DNA from: Spirochaetia bacterium
GTDB taxonomy: Bacteria > Spirochaetota > Spirochaetia > SZUA-6 > Bin103
Assembly: GCA_965203905.1 (NCBI GenBank)
Contig: CBDBDQ010000005.1
Coordinates: 4,640,001-4,704,000 of the forward strand
DNA length: 64,000 nt
Direction: 5' to 3'
Below the pieces are notes generated by a model. The model had not been told where the DNA came from. It did no database searches and saw only the letters and a program-made list of their open reading frames with translations. Both the position numbers and the translations under genes were made by a program. Numbering within the stretch: position 1 is the first letter of the stretch; each line of letters begins with the position of its first letter. Of this stretch, positions 27,658-59,600 are shown piece by piece.

Positions 27658-27873
27658 CGCGCTACTCCGCGCAGCGCGCTGCCTGCGTGCCGCGTAGCGC
27701 GACAGCTCCAGGTCTCCGCCTTCCAATCCATCACGTCGCGCATACTACTCTGCACCGGTCGCCGACGTCCTCACCGTTTGGCCCTGGGGCAAGGACGACA
27801 TGACCTGCTGTCGTGCTCGCTGACACACCGGCTGGTCGCCGAACGCGCGCCCGCGGCGTCCGTAAGCGCCCGT

Positions 27874-28269
27874 CAGGGCCATCCCATGCTGAACGATGTC
27901 TGCATCCCGTGGTGTGGGCGAGCTGCGGTGATGCCCCGGCGCGGCGCCTGCCAGATCGCCGCCTTCTGGGTGTGTGGTTCGTTCGCTGTACGACGTGTCC
28001 AGAAAAGAGGGGGTAGCCGCCACCAGCAACGCGCCGGTCTCCGCCGCTGCCTTGCTGGGCTTGTCGGCGCCGCGGTGCAGGATTCTGCAGAAAAGGTGCA
28101 AAAAAGTGCGCTGAGTACTTGACGGGTTTGGCGCTGCTCGTGACGGCCTCCTGCCGCACGTGCCGGCCCCTCCGACCCTTCGAACATCCCCCCGCGCCCT
28201 CCCAGGCCATCAGCACCCCGCCAGCGCCGGCCTGAGCCCTTCCCGATGCCGGTCCGGGACTCTCCGAGA
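27874..28269 (+). repeat. Conserved non-coding leader of HNH element (continues 30869-30902)
   Basis: Aligns with the reverse complement of 58916-59395. Confidence 0.85.
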
Positions 28270-28282
28270 GTAAGTATTCGGT

Positions 28283-29179
28283 CTACAGGTTGGGGGGCGG
28301 ATCAAGAGGAGCGCACAGTCGACGGCGGAAGTCGCGCCTGAGCGGGTAGAGCCAGATGTCTTTGGTGGGCAGCGTGTGCATTCGACGTACGTCGAGTTTG
28401 CCGCGTCCTTGGGTTTGTCCGACGTGGGTCCAGTTGGCGGCGCGGTAGCTGGTACCGGCGAAGCGGTCGGACTGCACGAAGGTCTCCAGCAGCAGCGGTC
28501 GGTACCCATAACGCGCCTGCCAGTCGGCGGGCAGCCGGCGGCTGATGCGCGCCAGCACGGTGGAAGCGAGATTGCACACCTGCACCCAAGGCAGGATCAA
28601 GAAGCGGGCGTTGTTCACCACCAGGTGCAGCCGCGCTTCGCGCTGGGCAACGCTCCAGCCGATGAAGCGGTCGCGAGGAGCCGCCTTCCAGGCGCTGGCG
28701 CCAAAGCCGACCACCGCCAGCACCTGCCGCTGGCAGGTGACCAAGTAGCGCTGCTGCGCACCCGGTAGCGGCGTATAGCCAAGGTAGTGGTAGCGGTCCA
28801 CGTACTCGCGCCATAGGAGCGCTTCGCGCTGATCGGCCAGCGGTCGTACCTGCAGCGCGGGCAGCTCATCGACGCGGGCGCTGATCGGCAGCTCCGGTTC
28901 CGCCTGCGCGGTACGACGGCGGCGCAGCGTGCCGTTGTAGTGACGCCGCCGCGGCGCCGGCAGCCGGATGAGCCCGTCGCGGTGCATGCGCAGCATCGCG
29001 ACGCGACAGCTCATGTCCTTCAGTTGTCCGTTGGCACGCCGCCAGTGCAGCCGTTCGCACACCACCTTCGAGAGGGCGAACCGATGGCGGGTAGGGTCCT
29101 CAGCGATGAGCGCGCGGATCAACTGCAGCTCCTGCTCGCTGAAGGGCCGGCCGCAGTAGCGCACCGCCTCAGGCGGCAC
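28283..29179 (-). CDS. DUF4338 (DruA-like domain) protein
   Basis: YCGRPFS, LSKVVCERLHW, RYHYLGY, VNNARFLILPW, LLETFV, GTSYRAANW..VGQTQGRG; stop lies inside TIR. Confidence 0.85.
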   Translation of the reverse strand: MPPEAVRYCGRPFSEQELQLIRALIAEDPTRHRFALSKVVCERLHWRRANGQLKDMSCRVAMLRMHRDGLIRLPAPRRRHYNGTLRRRRTAQAEPELPISARVDELPALQVRPLADQREALLWREYVDRYHYLGYTPLPGAQQRYLVTCQRQVLAVVGFGASAWKAAPRDRFIGWSVAQREARLHLVVNNARFLILPWVQVCNLASTVLARISRRLPADWQARYGYRPLLLETFVQSDRFAGTSYRAANWTHVGQTQGRGKLDVRRMHTLPTKDIWLYPLRRDFRRRLCAPLDPPPNL

Positions 29180-30794
29180 GGTCGTCGACCAGCTTGGCGG
29201 GTGAGCCGCGGGGCAGCAAGCGCGCCTCGGGACGGTGCCAGGGCAGGAACCGCTCGTAGTCTTCAGGCACGCGAGCGCCGGCGACCGCACAGGCGCTCAG
29301 GTACTCGGTCAGCCAAGTACGCGGGTTGATCTGCCATCGTTCGAGGGTGTGGAACAGGCTGAACAGCGCCGCGCTCAACTCACCGCTCCACTGCGCCCCC
29401 GAGCCGTAGTAGTTCTTGCGCCCCACCACCGGGCCGCGCAGCGCACGCTCGGCTTGATTATTGTCCAGCGGCAAGTCGGGATCCTCGACGAACCGCGTCA
29501 GCCCCTGCCAGTGGTTGCGCATGCTGCGCAGCACCTTCGCACACGCTGCCGCCAGCTTCGGCTGCTGCGCCAGTTCGCGCTCTCGTCGCTCTTCCATCGC
29601 CTGCACCACCGCCCGCAACGCCGCATCGGCCGCCGCGTACTGCGCGGGCTCACCACGCACCTCAAGACGCTCGTCGTTCAGGCGATACAGCGTAGCGATG
29701 TCAGCCAGCCACTGCTCGGCCCACTCCTGCTGATCGTCCCGCTCATGGGCTACCGTGATGAAGTCGCGGCGCATGTGCACCCAGCAGAACGACAACTCCA
29801 GCTCGGTATCCTTGGCCAGCCGCTTGTACGAGGAGAAGCGGTCGACGCTCACCACGCCCCCCGTCACGGTCGCAAAATGCTGCTTCGGCACCCGCGCCGA
29901 ACGGGTTGGATCGAGCGTGAATACCACCACCTCGGCACTCCAGAACAGCCACAGACACCAGCGCTGGCAGGTGTCCTCGCTGGCCGCCTCGAACACCTGC
30001 CAGCTGGTCTCGTCAGCATGCCAGTGCTCGCTCGTGCGGCTGCGTTCGATCAGCGCCTCGCGCAGTGGCGCGAACAACGGCGCCAGACGCCGCAGACCGT
30101 CGGTGACGGTGCCTTGGGCAAGATCCAGCCCATGCGTGCGTAGATCCGCGAGCAACCGATGCGTGGGCCGGTACAGCAGATACTTGTCGAGCAGCACCGT
30201 CACCCAGATCGAGATCCCCAGGATGCCGTTCGGGATCAGCCGTGGCGGCGCTGGCGCCGTGAGCACCGCCGCGGCCGCCGTGCACTGGCAGCTGCGGCGG
30301 TAGCGCCGCCGCTTGATCACCCGCCGGTAGGCGCGCACCTCGACTTCCAACTGCTCGGAATCCTCGCTGCCGTGCGAATGATACTCAGCGCCGCAGGCCG
30401 CGCAGCGGCGCCGGTCCGGGGCAACGTCGTGTGCTTCAACCTGTACCGGCAGGTGTGCGTGCCGGCGCCGACCATGGCTTGGCGCCCCGGGTTGCTGACC
30501 GCGGCGCCGCGGTGGCGCGGCGGTTGCCTCAGGAGCGCCGCCACTCCTGGTTCGCTTCTCGCTGCCGCGGCGCCGTGCCCAGCGTTCCCGCAGGCGCTGG
30601 CGCAGTTCCTTGAGCTTGGCCCGTGCCGCTTGCAGTTTCTGTTTCAGCCGTTGCTCGCGCGCTACCGCCTTGCCGTGCATCCTGCGGTAATAGCGCGCCT
30701 GTCGTCGCAGCTCTACTACCTCGCACCGCAACTCGTCCATCTGGCTCTGGCACGCCGCCGTGCAGCCACTCGTTTTCCGCCAGAACCCTCCCAC
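29169..30794 (-). CDS. IS66 transposase TnpC
   Basis: Coiled coil, CAACG zinc finger, HADET, SVDRFSSY, CWVHMRR, DNNQAERALR..VVGRKN; alternative start 30740. Confidence 0.93.
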   Translation of the reverse strand: MGGFWRKTSGCTAACQSQMDELRCEVVELRRQARYYRRMHGKAVAREQRLKQKLQAARAKLKELRQRLRERWARRRGSEKRTRSGGAPEATAAPPRRRGQQPGAPSHGRRRHAHLPVQVEAHDVAPDRRRCAACGAEYHSHGSEDSEQLEVEVRAYRRVIKRRRYRRSCQCTAAAAVLTAPAPPRLIPNGILGISIWVTVLLDKYLLYRPTHRLLADLRTHGLDLAQGTVTDGLRRLAPLFAPLREALIERSRTSEHWHADETSWQVFEAASEDTCQRWCLWLFWSAEVVVFTLDPTRSARVPKQHFATVTGGVVSVDRFSSYKRLAKDTELELSFCWVHMRRDFITVAHERDDQQEWAEQWLADIATLYRLNDERLEVRGEPAQYAAADAALRAVVQAMEERRERELAQQPKLAAACAKVLRSMRNHWQGLTRFVEDPDLPLDNNQAERALRGPVVGRKNYYGSGAQWSGELSAALFSLFHTLERWQINPRTWLTEYLSACAVAGARVPEDYERFLPWHRPEARLLPRGSPAKLVDDRAA

Positions 30795-30902
30795 ACCTCA
30801 TTCGTAGCACACCGGTCCGGATGTGTCCAGCGGTCCCACACCGGTAGACCGAATGTTTACCTCCGAGATCTGTCATTTCTCAGCCATGCTTATATTTACG
30901 CC

Positions 30903-32279
30903 ATGGCTACCGCGACCGCTCCCGGCTTCTCCTCCTCGCTCTCCGGGCTCCCCGACCAGGTGCTGCTGGCGCATACCAGGTCGCTCGTCCTGCACGAGCA
31001 GGCACTGCAGCTCGCCGTCCTCGACCACTTGCGCGAGATCCACGCCCGCCACCTCCACCTGCGCCTCGGGTTCTCCAGCCTGTTCGACTACGCCGTGCGC
31101 GAGCTGGGCTATAGCGAGGGTGCCGCCTGGCGCCGTATCAAAGCCATGCGCCTGTGCTCCGATACCGCCGGGACCCGCGAGCGGCTGCAGGACGGCTCGC
31201 TCTCCCTGAGCGCCGCGGCGCAGTTGCAGAACACCTTCGATCTCCTGCAGCGCACGGCGACCACCGCCGCGGACCCCGGCTCGCCACCCGCGGCACCGGA
31301 GCTGCTGCCGCTCGGCACGGGTCCGGCGCCGGAGGCGGGGGCTTCCGGGACCGGGGCAGCGGCGGCAGCGCGACCGCTGCCGGCGCTGGACGCGGCGCAG
31401 CGGCAGGAGCTGGTGGCGCAGGCGAGCGGCAAGAGCACCCGCGAGGTGAAGCAGTTGTTGGCCGGGGTGGCTCCCGAGCTGGCGCGGCCGGCCGATCGCA
31501 TGCGGGCGCTGGGCGAGGGCCGCTGGGAGCTGAAGGTGGTGATCGACTCTGCCTGTCAGTGCGGGATCGAGCAGCTACGAGCACTGCTGTCGCACGTGGA
31601 CCCGCACCTGACGCTGGGACAGCTGGTGGAGCGGCTGGTGCAGGACGGCCCGCAGCGCTACGACCCCGGGCGACCGCCGCGCGGGCGCAGAGGTGGGCAC
31701 CGAGAGGCAAGCGCGGGCCAAGCGCAGGAGCCGACGGCGCAGCAAGGGCCGGCAGGCGGGGCAACTTCGCCGGCGAAGTGGGGCGCGCAAGAGCAACCCG
31801 GAGTGCCACCGACGCCGGAGGGCACGAGCGCCGGTGGCAGGACCCCGGCGCCGGCAGCGCTGTCCGTAGAGGAACCCGCGTGCGGGATTGGCCGTGCCGA
31901 CACCTCGGCGGTGGCAGCGCTGTCCGCGCCGCCGTCGGGGCGCGAGACTTGCGGCGGCAGCACGCCGGTGAGTGCCAAGCCAGCGGCGGCAGCGCCCGGC
32001 ACTGCTCCTTCGGCGGCGAAGTTGGTGGCCGATCGTGGGTCCCACGCCACCGTACCGACGCCGCCGGCAGACCAGAGCATGCCGACCGCACTGGCAGCGG
32101 CGGATGGCGGTCGCAGCGCTCCTTCGCCAGCGAAGCGGGCAGGGACGGCGCAGCGGGCAGGAGCGCAGCTCGATGGCCGTTCGCGGCCGCAGGCGGCGGC
32201 AGCCGGCCCCTCCGGAGGCAGCGCGCAGCCGTCCCACCGGCCGCGCCGATCCCGCTACATTAGCGTGGGATTGTCCTGA
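30903..32279 (+). pseudogene. DUF222-like HNH endonuclease gene, C-terminal HNH domain lost
   Basis: HLREI..RHLHLRLGFSSLFDYAVRELGYSEGAAWRRI; ends RRSRYI joined directly to TIR. Confidence 0.85.
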
Positions 32280-32296
32280 GCGCCCGTAGCGAGGGG

Positions 32297-32302
32297 TTGA
32301 CA
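32297..32302 (+). promoter_or_regulatory. Perfect -35 box (TTGACA) after copy 1 insertion site
   Basis: TTGACA 9 nt after TSD; weak -10 (CATGTT-like). Confidence 0.55.
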
Positions 32303-32329
32303 CGGCCGGCACGCCGCAGGCATGTTGCC

Positions 32330-32519
32330 GCTGTTCACGAGCACGTTACTGGGCCCGGGCATGGCGTCGTTGGCGGCACCCCGGGTCGGGCATCGCAAGA
32401 TGCCCATGCCGACGAAACTTGATGTTGAGGAGGTAATTGTCAGTTGAGTGAAATACGTGCCGGTGTGAGGTATCACACCGGCTGACCTACCTGGGCCGCC
32501 CTGCGGGGCGGCCCTTTTT
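32330..32519 (+). ncRNA. Candidate structured small RNA (~190 nt)
   Basis: Between TTGACA and terminator; hairpins GGGCAUC-GCAA-GAUGCCC and GCCGGUGUGA-GGUA-UCACACCGGC; no convincing ORF. Confidence 0.35.
32493..32519 (+). terminator. Rho-independent terminator
   Basis: GGGCCGCCC-TGCG-GGGCGGCCC-TTTTT. Confidence 0.85.
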
Positions 32520-32524
32520 GCATC

Positions 32525-56107: not shown

Positions 56108-57112
56108 TCAGACGTCGGACCAGAAGATGAGGGCGCCGATCACGCCGTCGGCGTTGCCTTCGAGGATGCGGCGGTAGAGATTCGGCGCCTCGAGGCGACT
56201 TACGCGGTGGGTGACCGTATGCTCCCACGGCAGGTAGCCGAGGGCGAGGTTGTGCATGATCGTCTCCCGCGCCGGTTCCTCCCCGTCGTTGCAGGGGAAG
56301 AACATCCGCAGCCGCTTGCCGTGCGGCGGGGGGTAGCGGAAGCTGATCGGGTCCTTGCCGTAGTGGCCCTGCCACACGAACTTGCCGCGCGCCCGGGTCA
56401 GGGCGATGGCGGCGTCGATGTTCTGCGGCAGGCCGGTCGCTTCGAACACCACGTCGCAGCCGCCCGGCCAGCGCTCTTCCACCGCCTGCGCCACGTCGGT
56501 GGTGGAGGCGTCGATCAGGTGACGGGCGCCGAGCTTGCGCGCCACTCTCAGGCGTGCCGCGTCCCGGTCCACGGCCACCACCTCGCAGCCGCGCAGGTTG
56601 GCCCACATCACCACCGACAGGCCCACCAGGCCGACGCCGAACACCAGCACGGAGTCGCCCAGGCGCGGGTTGCTGATGTCGACGCCGTGCAGCCCGACGC
56701 CGGGAAGCACGAAGGCACTGGCCACGTCCAGCGGCGTCCCGGCGGGCAGGTGCGCGGTATCGGGCCGCCGCGCATCGATCACCGAGTGGCTGGAGTGGGT
56801 GCCGGCGGCGGTGCACACAGTATCCCCGTCGAGCAGCATCCCCGGGCTGGCACGGAAGTATACCAGGTCGCCGGCCGCGTAGCCGGACACCTCCGCGCCG
56901 GCCGCTTCGACGACGCCGGTCGCGGTGTAGCCGGTACACAGCGGATAGAAGATGCGGTCCAGGGTCGAGCGCACCATCATGAACTCGGTGCCGATGCTGA
57001 CCCCCGACCACAGCGTGCGAAGCACCAAGTCGTGAGGACCGGGGTCGGGGAGGGTCACCTCGCGCAACGCGAACCGTCGCTGCGCATCACAGATCAGCGC
57101 GTGTGCGTTCAC
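56108..57112 (-). CDS. Zn-binding alcohol dehydrogenase-fold oxidoreductase
   Basis: SGVSIGTE, GY..TGVV, GVGLVG, FEATG; AGGAGG RBS. Confidence 0.85.
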   Translation of the reverse strand: MNAHALICDAQRRFALREVTLPDPGPHDLVLRTLWSGVSIGTEFMMVRSTLDRIFYPLCTGYTATGVVEAAGAEVSGYAAGDLVYFRASPGMLLDGDTVCTAAGTHSSHSVIDARRPDTAHLPAGTPLDVASAFVLPGVGLHGVDISNPRLGDSVLVFGVGLVGLSVVMWANLRGCEVVAVDRDAARLRVARKLGARHLIDASTTDVAQAVEERWPGGCDVVFEATGLPQNIDAAIALTRARGKFVWQGHYGKDPISFRYPPPHGKRLRMFFPCNDGEEPARETIMHNLALGYLPWEHTVTHRVSRLEAPNLYRRILEGNADGVIGALIFWSDV

Positions 57113-57178: not shown

Positions 57179-57207
57179 CTGTTATTCCGTTTCGGAGTGG
57201 CTGTCAA
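57179..57207 (-). promoter_or_regulatory. Sigma70 promoter of dehydrogenase gene, next to copy 2 insertion site
   Basis: TTGACA-17 nt-TAACAG; TCCG-AAA-CGGA palindrome in spacer. Confidence 0.6.
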
Positions 57208-57226
57208 CCGCGCGCCGGCTCCATTG

Positions 57227-59395
57227 CCCGGCTATCCCACGCTGCGCGACAAGCCGGCTGCAAATCGTTACTACGGCTGCCATCGGACCGACACCCAACG
57301 GCCCAACTGGCGCCCCCGGCGAGCGCCGATCACGTAGCCCCGTCTGGCGGCGGCCCGTCCTCCCGATGCCGGAAGCGGTGGTGAGCAGAACAATGAAGCC
57401 TGAGGTTCCCCGGCTCAGCGCTGCCGCCGAGCGCGAAGGGAACGATGTGGTCGAGCTCCAGCAGGAAGCGGGAGCCGCAGCGCCGCCCGCTGTGCGGATC
57501 GACGTAACTGCAACAGCCGCCGTCGCGGCGCCACACCTCGCGCCGCACTGGTGCCGGAATATACCGGGATCGACGCGCCCGCTGGCGCGGCTGCGCGCTG
57601 TCTCGGGACGGGCCGGCTGCCTCTGGCTGCGGCCGCGAATGGCCATCGACCTGCACCGCTCCTGCCCGCTTCGCCGCCCCGGCCCGCTTCGCTGGCGAAG
57701 GAGCGCTGCGACGGCGATCCGCCACTGCCAGCGCGGTCGGCATGCTCTGGTCTGCCGGCGGCGTCGGTACGGTGGCGTGGGACCCGCAACCAGCCACCAA
57801 CTTCGCCGCCGAAGCAGCGGTGCCGGGCGCCGCCACCGCTGGCTTGGCACTCACCGGGGTGCTGCCGCCGCAAGTCTCGCGCCCCGACGGCGGCGCGGAC
57901 AGCACTGCCACCGCCGAGGTGCCGGCGCCGCCATTCCCGCGCGCGGGTTCCTCTGCGGACAGAGCCGGCGCCGTGGTGCTGCCACCGGCGCTCGTGCCCG
58001 CCGGCGGCGACGGCACTCCGGGTTGCTCTTGCACGTCCCGCTTCGCCGGCGAAGTCCCTCCGCCCGCCGGCCCGTCCTGCGCCTTCGGCTCCAGCGCCTG
58101 GCCCGCGCTTGCCTCCCGGCGCCCATCTCTGCGCCCGCGCGGCGGTCGCCCCGGGTCGTAGCGCTGCAGGCCGTCCTGCACCAGCCGCTCCACCAGCTGC
58201 CCCAGCGTCAGGTGCGGGTCCACGTGCGACAGCAGTGCCCGGAGTTGCTCGATCCCGCACTGACAGGCAGCGTCGATCACCACCTTCAGCTCCCAGCGGC
58301 CGTCGCCCAGCGCCCGCATGCGATCGGCCGGCCGCGCCAGCTCGGGAGCCACCCCGGCCAACAACTGCTTCACCTCGCGCGTGCTCTTGCCGCTCGCCTG
58401 CGCCACCAGCTCCTGCCGCTGCGCCGCGTCCAGCGCCGGCACCGGTCGCGCCGGCGCCGCTGCCCCGGTCCTGGAAGCCCCGCCTCCGGCGCCGTCCCCG
58501 TGGCGCCCGGCAGCAGCTCCGGGGCCGCGGGTGCCGAGCCGGGGTCCACCGCGGCGGTGGCTGTGCGCTGCAGGAGATCGAAGGTGTTCTGCAACTGCGC
58601 CGCCGCGCTCAGGGAGAGCGAGCCGTACTGCAGCCGCTCGCGTGATCCGGCGGTATCGGAGCACAGGCGCATGGCTTTGATACGGCGCCAGGCGGCGCCT
58701 TCGCTGTAGCCCAGCTCGCGCACGGCGTAGTCGAACAGGCTGGAGAACCCGAGGCGCAGGTGGAGGTGGCGGGCGTGGATCTCGCGCAGGTGGTCGAGGA
58801 CGGCGAGCTGCAGCGCCTGCTCGTGCAGGACGAGGGACCTGGTATGCGCCAGCAGCACCTGGTCGGGGAGCCCGGAGAGCGAGGAGGAGAAGCCGGTGGC
58901 GGTCGCGGGAGCCATGGCGTAAATATACTCATGGCTGAGAAATGTCCGGTTTCTGAAAGTCCCGGACCGGCACTGGGAAGGGCTCAGGCCGGCGCTGGCG
59001 GGGTGCTGACGGGCCTGGAGGGCGTGGCGGGATGTTCGAAGGGTCGGAGGGGCCGGAACATGTGTCAGGAGGCCGTTACGAGCAGCGCCAAACCCGGCAA
59101 GTGCTCAGCGCAATTTTTTGCACTTTTTTCGCACAATCCTGCACCGCGGCGCCGCACCGTGGTCGACTAGGTGCCGCCATCAAGGCTGGCTACAGCGAGA
59201 GGTCGACCCAACGTGGCAGCAGCGCATCGGCGGAGACCGGCGCGTTGCGGGTGGGCGGCAACCCACCCATTCCTGGACACATCATACAGCGAACGACCCC
59301 GCACCCCCTATAAGCGGCGATCTGGCAGGCACCGGGGCCATCACCGCCGCTTGTCCACACGGGATTCAGCCGTCGTTCAGCATGGGATGGCCCTG
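57227..59395 (-). mobile_element. TIR/TSD-bounded DUF222-like/HNH element, copy 2 (full length)
   Basis: Inverted repeats 57230-57250 / 59372-59392 (17/21); direct repeats GGCTCCATTG (57217-57226) and GGCTCAATTG (59396-59405). Confidence 0.85.
57330..58915 (-). pseudogene. DUF222-like HNH endonuclease (~528 aa) with -1 frameshift in a G run
   Basis: Paralogue of 30903-32279; C-terminal RRDGGCCSY...C...ELDHIVP...GG...NLRLHCSAHH; G4 at 58478-58481 versus G5 in copy 1. Confidence 0.85.
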
Positions 59396-59600
59396 GGCTC
59401 AATTGATGCCGGATCTCTCACGGAGCGCCGGCGCTCACGGCGGCAGCCGCCGGTTCCCTGACCCCCGGCTGCCGCAGGACGTCGAGCGCCGCCGCCGCGT
59501 CGAACGACTCGGCTGGATGCGCTGGCGGTCGCGGGCGCGGTGATTTACAGTACGCTGCGGAAGTGGCGATGGCAGTCCAGGGCCGCGCCGGAGGGCGATC

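Follow-up and report, generated by a model that had tools for sequence, protein, structure and literature searches.

The ISAs1 family of insertion sequences, to which ISAs1, IS1358 and the H-repeat of Escherichia coli belong, is characterised in ISfinder by terminal repeats starting with CAGGG and by target duplications of 8-10 bp, and its elements are usually 1.2-1.5 kb long. The subject of this study is a repeated element that combines ends of this type with a gene for a protein with a C-terminal HNH domain (the HNH element), two copies of which lie in a stretch of 64,000 nucleotides from the genome of a Spirochaetia bacterium (assembly GCA_965203905.1, contig CBDBDQ010000005.1, positions 4,640,001 to 4,704,000; hereafter the window). 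Upstream insertions of IS1548, an ISAs1-family element of streptococci, are reported for the putative lmb promoter, at a distance of 9 bp (PMC2875397), for an Mga site of scl1, at 38 bp (PMC5005324), and for murB (PMC8744998). In the excerpts covered, the literature on ISAs1 consists of such single cases and holds no fixed-offset promoter targeting; Flechard et al. 2013, on IS1548 targets, lies outside these excerpts. Insertion at a defined distance from promoters has been described for TnGBS, ISLre2 and part of the ISKra4 elements; their insertions fall 15-17 bp, most often 16 bp, upstream of sigma-A -35 boxes, a behaviour that the excerpted report terms unique or atypical (PMC3942029).

In our analysis the HNH element emerges as a probable derivative of an ISAs1 element, non-autonomous and carrying a cargo gene, that was moved in trans and placed upstream of promoters, and it is now probably stranded in this genome. 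BLAST searches with the second window copy (copy 2) detected approximately 45-50 copies in the genome, which are 84-92% identical to copy 2 and 2.1-2.2 kb long, with about 430-480 nt located 5' of the only conserved open reading frame (ORF). Using a purpose-written fitting alignment, we placed 42 left and 45 right ends; the terminal inverted repeats are imperfect and 17 bp long (CAGGrCyATCCCAyGCT), the left end reads CAGGGCCATCCCATGCT and the right end, as reverse complement, CAGGACTATCCCACGCT, and the CAGGG start holds over all of these ends. Among the 30 copies for which both ends were placed, and with 2 nt of slack permitted in the placement, the two copies of the 9-bp duplication match at 9/9 positions in 12 cases, at 8/9 in five and at 7/9 in three. 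Repeats and duplications thus fit the descriptors of the ISAs1 family. Unlike its members, the HNH element encodes no transposase and carries the HNH gene instead, so that it can at most be a non-autonomous derivative, and at about 2.16 kb it exceeds the usual family size, as do the autonomous relatives described below. The encoded protein of about 525 amino acids has a single Pfam match, the HNH domain (PF01844) at residues 479-518, which scores 21.6 bits against a cut-off of 21.4; searches of this protein with Pfam and NCBIfam models revealed neither a transposase domain nor a Mutator-like domain, and the Pfam DUF222 model (PF02720) gave no match at E values up to 0.1. An RNA-guided nature of the element was considered and dropped, as the NCBIfam IscB match reached only 16 bits compared with 175, and Rfam detected nothing at gathering level on the element.

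At both window copies the element end is followed by the 9-bp target duplication, nine further nucleotides and the hexamer TTGACA (Table 1). This geometry had been noted in the sequence-only reading of the window, and reading the sites and aligning the two copies bore out that spacing and orientation relative to TTGACA are the same. The right repeat of copy 1, at C5:4672278, has one mismatch (positions prefixed C3 or C5 are contig positions, all others are those of the window), and the promoter-like site beside it scores 11.7 bits at offset 18, its -10 hexamer contributing by itself only 3.0 bits. The right terminus of copy 2 is degenerate (GGGATAGCCGGGC compared with the consensus GGGATAGTCCTG), and its right end was therefore placed via the duplication, with an uncertainty of about 1 nt. 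The box at copy 2 had been assigned to a plausible promoter, and comparison with the sister genomes G003 and G004 agrees with this assignment: both contain TTGACA-N17-TACCAG, i.e. the promoter is conserved there, and, when these loci are compared as candidates for the empty site, homology starts exactly at the -35 box, whereas the DNA upstream is unrelated. Nine of 10 genomes of the genus share the co-directional 334-aa ORF downstream of this promoter. Neither window copy is undamaged: copy 1 is affected by insertion of an IS66-family element and by loss of the HNH domain through an internal deletion after approximately position 32261, just ahead of the last 17 nt or so, and copy 2 by a frameshift.

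The same arrangement is found genome-wide. The 45 right ends were reduced to 37 distinct right flanks by removing flanks copied within larger repeats (those dropped include duplicates such as C3:28091, identical to C5:2967976, and three alike at C5:1235226, 1242773 and 1247356), and offsets were scored for predicted promoters with a sigma70-type weight matrix of hand-entered E. coli frequencies. A -35 box with a promoter match of at least 8 bits is located at offsets 16-20 from the right end in 10 of the 37 flanks, compared with 0.48% of 20,000 random positions taken from the whole genome and therefore mostly coding. The peakedness of the distribution provides a control that is free of this choice of genomic background: matches of at least 8 bits anywhere within offsets 0-49 occur in 13 flanks, ten of them at 17-20, and 10 of 13 matches inside 5 of 50 offsets corresponds to p = 2e-8. 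Left-end flanks, scored outward, show a promoter match at the offset in only 1 of 40 cases, and promoter-like matches on this side are found at scattered offsets. Independently of any matrix, TTG starts at offsets 17-19 in 10 of the 37 right flanks, and no other offset has more than two. Excluding the two window copies leaves 8 of 35 flanks (binomial p = 5.9e-12). What the sequence-only reading had claimed from two sites, an oriented, promoter-targeted insertion that keeps a set distance upstream of housekeeping-type promoters and produces 9-bp duplications, thus extends to the genome, and the further copies show enrichment of -35 boxes at the offset rather than its absence.

It had also been proposed that GGTTGACA is the recognised sequence, a view that the flanks do not support. 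The 11 hexamers found at the offset vary (TTGGCA, TTCTGA, TTGCCG, TCGACA, TTGATT, TTGAGA and TTGTCA, among others) and are not preceded by a fixed GG, and in a logo drawn over the 37 flanks hardly any position stands out, as the signal is confined to about 27% of them and its offset shifts by about 1 nt. A -10 hexamer at a spacing of 16-18 nt accompanies 8 of the 11 hexamers, compared with 3.4% of random sites that have an equally good -35 box. The co-enrichment of -10 hexamers, together with the variability of the -35 hexamers, indicates that the targets are whole promoters and not merely a -35 word, and the promoter may thus be recognised as a functional unit. Many copies are located upstream of co-directional ORFs, as judged by a crude gene call based on GC content at third codon positions, which is noisy and gives no firm count. 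In several right flanks (e.g. C5:3492195, 1453083 and 6358744) a start codon follows only 7-10 nt or so after the -10 hexamer, which, judged from these distances, suggests that several of the targeted promoters produce leaderless mRNAs.

The ends of the HNH element led to its relatives. We searched for the terminal repeat of the window element in 60 related genomes, five of which were analysed in detail, and found repeat pairs 0.14-2.2 kb apart; the elements fetched were of four kinds. Gene-less miniature inverted-repeat transposable elements (MITEs) of 141 bp with the same ends and 9-bp duplications occur in G008, elements of 1.4-1.5 kb carry other small genes between the same repeats, and a 2.2-kb element in G004 carries a true DUF222-HNH gene (PF02720, E = 3e-21) between the same ISAs1-type repeats. 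The fourth kind are autonomous elements of 2.16 kb in G001 (four copies of 2,164 bp), G004 and G020, which the same repeats enclose and whose 606-aa protein product combines a DruA-like domain with DDE_Tnp_1_assoc (PF13808) and DDE_Tnp_1 (PF01609). With 148 bits against a cut-off of 70, this protein is assigned by NCBIfam to the ISAs1 family (NF033564); its additional DruA/DUF4338-like N-terminal domain sets it apart from the family. The left repeat of the HNH element and the transposase-proximal repeat of the autonomous elements agree in 18 of the first 19 nt.

A scan of the genome under study itself for this repeat away from the HNH copies revealed a further element of the shared type (G000:C5:5515052-5516341). 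It is 1.29 kb long and has the same CAGGG-type repeats and a 7/9 duplication. The place of the HNH gene is taken by one of the Transposase_31/YhgA(Rpn)-like type (PF04754, E = 9e-16), and a -10-like TATAGT is located about 40 nt beyond one end. Dozens of the 141-bp MITEs with these repeats occur in G008, several of them beside repeats that look like those of ISKra4-type elements (GGTGCATTCC...). By contrast, 11 loci with relatives of the HNH protein in named records of metagenome-assembled genomes lack CAGGG repeats and hence provide no replicates; two of them end in GGAAATGCGCCC, which resembles an ISKra4-type repeat.

The offset recurs in these relatives. In each of the four autonomous copies in G001, which represent independent insertions because their duplications are distinct, the highest-scoring promoter match is found at an offset of 18-20 relative to one end. 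Among 26 ends of 13 loci from relatives, 8 of 9 matches of at least 6.5 bits fall at 18-20 (p = 3e-9), and among 31 ends of G008 MITEs, 6 of 9 matches of at least 8 bits fall at 17-19 (p = 1e-4). The geometry is thereby replicated in three genomes, and it is shared by members that are autonomous, that lack genes or that carry cargo.

The ORF of the HNH element is intact in 21 of 29 full-length copies, and pairwise ratios of nonsynonymous to synonymous substitutions (dN/dS), calculated on these 21 intact copies only and therefore biased downward, are 0.33 (N-terminal domain) and 0.25 (HNH domain), compared with 0.87 (Pro/Ala-rich linker). The HNH protein has therefore been under selection during the diversification of the family. 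Relatives of the protein are abundant: in each of three sister genomes of the genus 39-63 stretches were matched, of which a single gene may contribute more than one, and 1,589 proteins from metagenomes reached E values of 1e-5 or below among 8,000 candidates scored; none is named among the 120 matches listed. Nuclease genes of different types occupy the same shell in different elements, namely HNH, DUF222-HNH and Transposase_31/YhgA-like genes. The HNH protein and the DUF222 protein of G004 share 36% identity in the HNH domain (E = 8e-9), whereas their N-terminal parts align only with an E value of 0.47. This bears on the REP13E12 or DUF222-HNH genes of mycobacteria (REP13E12 is mentioned in the excerpt of PMC10589994). 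Like these, the HNH gene is present in multiple copies and encodes a helical N-terminal part followed by a C-terminal HNH domain, and the true DUF222-HNH gene of G004 resides between the same ISAs1-type repeats; unlike these, the window protein falls below the Pfam DUF222 model and resembles the G004 protein in the HNH domain only. With MITEs and non-autonomous insertion sequences that carry cargo genes the HNH element shares the possession of ends in common with an autonomous element and the lack of a transposase, but its cargo is a nuclease gene under purifying selection.

One explanation for the movement of the element is transposition in trans by a Mutator-like transposase, as the sequence-only reading had inferred. 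In its favour, such transposases of the ISLre2/ISKra4 or TnGBS type place their insertions 15-17 bp upstream of sigma-A -35 boxes, and the right repeat is then on the promoter side, according to the excerpted report (PMC3942029). ISKra4-family elements with 9-bp duplications do reside in the genome (five copies of a 2.92-kb type and one copy of a 1.55-kb type), and a second HNH subfamily of about 11 copies rides in derivatives of the 1.55-kb type. The inverted repeats of both resident ISKra4-type elements (GGGTGCGGCTC... and GGGGTGCATTC...), however, are unlike those of the window element (CAGGGCCATCCC...), so that the search proposed earlier for ISLre2/ISKra4 transposases with matching ends turned up resident elements with the wrong ends; the ISLre2 model detected nothing above its cut-off in this genome, and the repeats of the window element match the autonomous ISAs1-type elements of the sister genomes. 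We therefore retain mobilisation in trans as an inference, with an ISAs1-type rather than a Mutator-like agent, and consider it very unlikely that a Mutator-like transposase moved the HNH element. A more direct role is conceivable for the HNH protein, which might itself be the mobility enzyme or an essential co-factor that cuts near promoters, with only a partial resemblance to DDE elements. Its ORF is the sole conserved one and frequently intact; purifying selection acts on the two folded domains but not on the drifting linker; the genus shows a huge expansion of the gene family; and a DDE partner is missing from this genome. Yet the gene-less 141-bp MITEs show the same repeats and 9-bp duplications, and the same holds for the 1.3-1.5-kb elements with Transposase_31/YhgA-like or other genes and for the true ISAs1 elements. 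Ends, duplication and offset thus track the repeats and not the HNH gene. To our knowledge, no HNH enzyme makes insertions that are bounded by inverted repeats and flanked by duplications, and we regard an HNH-driven mobility as unlikely.

The position of the copies could also be thought of without any targeting, if insertion were random and selection had retained harmless intergenic copies near promoters. The location of many copies upstream of co-directional ORFs, by our crude test, and the promoter-like matches at scattered offsets on the left side are in line with this idea. Survivorship would enrich intergenic sites, but it would not yield a peak as narrow as 3 nt such as the one observed on the right side, which moreover reappears in two further genomes for different members of the family; random insertion followed by selection is thus very unlikely as an explanation.

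Several observations weigh against an ISAs1 derivative moved in trans to promoters. A recognisable promoter at the offset is present in 27% of the right flanks only and is lacking from the other 27 flanks; the promoters are predicted ones, scored with a hand-entered matrix of E. coli type. Orientation varies over the family: in this genome the promoter is at the right end (10 compared with 1 at the left end), three of the four G001 copies have it at the transposase-proximal end, and for the G008 MITEs and the G004 elements it may be at one end or the other. No intact transposase able to move the element was found in the genome under study, which is 98.7% complete and consists of five contigs. 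The ISAs1 model (NF033564) detected one fragment of 28 bits only, and the G001 transposase as query found DruA-domain paralogues and two short C-terminal fragments, one of which (82% identity) is located about 300 nt from an orphan repeat at C5:4213730. Since a capable transposase is missing here, mobilisation in trans rests on the relatives. G008 is rich in MITEs, yet neither the HNH protein nor the Transposase_31 protein was found there, the ISAs1 transposase not having been searched for; at 88% completeness and in 340 contigs this genome is too fragmented to tell which protein moves its MITEs. The main difficulty is the purifying selection on the HNH protein, which is unexpected of inert cargo and leaves room for a role of this protein in the spread of the element.

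With these points in mind, we propose that the HNH element arose when a gene for a C-terminal-HNH protein replaced the DDE transposase gene of an ISAs1 element whose CAGGG-starting inverted repeats and 9-bp target duplications were kept, and that it would have been moved in trans by an ISAs1-type transposase with a DruA/DUF4338-like N-terminal domain. This partner seems to have been lost here, and because the genome holds only fragments of an ISAs1-type transposase, the approximately 45 copies are probably stranded. By this account, the transposition system targets complete sigma70-type promoters and sets an element end 17-20 nt upstream of their -35 hexamer, with a staggered cut at about -45 to -54 relative to the transcription start, which leaves the promoter and the gene intact, in keeping with the idea of a 'safe harbour'. 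Recognition of the promoter may perhaps proceed through bound RNA polymerase or sigma factor. The parallel with TnGBS, ISLre2 and ISKra4 (p-MULT 3 and 4) lies in insertion that is oriented and keeps a constant short distance upstream of the -35 box (17-20 nt for the HNH element and its relatives), in an orientation that is looser when the two repeats are alike and in the 9-bp duplications of the ISKra4-type copies in this genome. These systems differ in that they belong to an unrelated superfamily, Mutator-like there and IS4-like (DDE_Tnp_1/ISAs1) here, in their terminal repeats, and in an offset that is about 2 nt longer for the HNH element. The likeness is therefore one of working mode and not of membership.

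More tentatively, promoter targeting might be a general and so far undescribed trait of ISAs1 elements, independent of the Mutator-like TnGBS/ISLre2 system, with nuclease genes that repeatedly replaced the transposase and stay under selection; we consider this broader proposal possible but doubtful. Under it, recognition of polymerase-bound promoters may mediate targeting, and the DruA/DUF4338-like domain would be a candidate targeting module. This domain is fused to the ISAs1 transposase and is also encoded in the resident ISKra4-type and IS66-type elements.

The resident ISKra4-family elements have features of their own. The five copies of the 2.92-kb type are at least 99% alike (C5:1283792-1286719 and four more) and contain a DruA-like coding stretch upstream of the transposase, with one in-frame TGA in the otherwise open frame. 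The second HNH subfamily shows 70-78% nucleotide identity in the coding parts and lies inside 2.4-kb derivatives of the 1.55-kb element (e.g. C5:2336597-2338993 and about 10 other places; full 1.55-kb copy at C5:2122482-2124033), in which most of the ISKra4 transposase gene is deleted and the HNH gene is antiparallel; this is a different vehicle from that of the window element. Two copies of the HNH element (C5:1893371-1893460 and C5:6785935-6786025) contain, about 24 nt inside the left end, a piece of approximately 38 nt that resembles the right inverted repeat of the 1.55-kb ISKra4-type element.

The IS66-family element in copy 1 sits just 5' of the HNH start codon. The same element is found at nearly the same position, in opposite orientation, in another HNH copy (C5:7575718-7580434), and its DruA-like ORF has six copies in the genome. 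Downstream of the promoter-like site beside copy 1, a GAGGAGG site, a 13-codon ORF with a TTG start and a terminator-like hairpin follow within about 200 nt; from this arrangement, positions 32297-32520 could constitute a small transcription unit, for which Rfam gave no match at gathering level.

Table 1. Positions of the two HNH-element copies and of adjoining features in the window
Feature	Position	Strand	Remarks
Copy 1, whole element	27874-32278	+	split by 2.6-kb IS66-family insertion
Copy 1, left 9-bp target-site duplication AGCGCCCGT	27865..27873	+	9/9 match with 32279-32287
Copy 1, left part of the element (left inverted repeat CAGGGCCATCCCATGCTGAACGAT)	27874..28267	+	BLAST query 6-449 = C5:4667874-4668267
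IS66-family insertion sequence inside copy 1	28268..30873 (boundaries approximate)	-	NF033517, 296 bits
IS66-family insertion, 541-aa transposase ORF	29169-30794	-	NF033517
IS66-family insertion, 335-aa ORF with DruA-like (DruA/DUF4338-like) domain	28283-29290	-	DruA-like match C5:4668331-4668879
Copy 1, rest of element	30874..32278	+	ORF from ATG 30903; terminal repeat ...AGCGTGGGATTGTCCTG kept
Copy 1, right target-site duplication AGCGCCCGT	32279..32287	+	sequence read
Copy 1, spacer AGCGAGGGG	32288-32296	+	sequence read
Promoter-like site beside copy 1	32297..32326	+	-35 TTGACA 32297-32302, 18-nt spacer, weak -10 CATGTT 32321-32326
Strong terminator-like hairpin with T run	~32493-32519	+	downstream of copy 1 promoter-like site
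Copy 2, full-length HNH element	57226..59395	-	ORF frameshifted, pieces 58915-58370 and 58664-57330; HNH domain present
Copy 2, left target-site duplication AATTGAGCC	59396..59404 (59404->59396)	-	8/9 match with right copy
Copy 2, right target-site duplication AATGGAGCC	57217..57225 (57225->57217)	-	8/9 match with left copy
Copy 2, spacer GGCGCGCGG	57216->57208	-	sequence read
Promoter beside copy 2	57179..57207	-	-35 TTGACA 57207->57202, 17-nt spacer, -10 TAACAG 57184->57179
334-aa ORF, co-directional with copy 2 promoter	56108..57112, start 57112	-	'dehydrogenase' is the label of the sequence-only reading only

Insertion upstream of promoters is a known behaviour, and it is found here in a different transposase family, together with a nuclease cargo under selection. 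The same geometry in an unrelated DDE family would make promoters a convergently chosen safe harbour, and ISAs1-type targeting would offer a second system, independent of the first, in which to study the reading of promoters by transposases. For genome annotation, a repeat located just upstream of a -35 box is easily taken for a regulator site, and 'HNH endonuclease' genes that occur in many copies, as here, may represent the cargo of transposons and not homing genes. If promoter targeting with repeatedly acquired and selected nuclease genes indeed turned out to be a general ISAs1 trait, the nuclease would actively help 'non-autonomous' elements to persist or spread.

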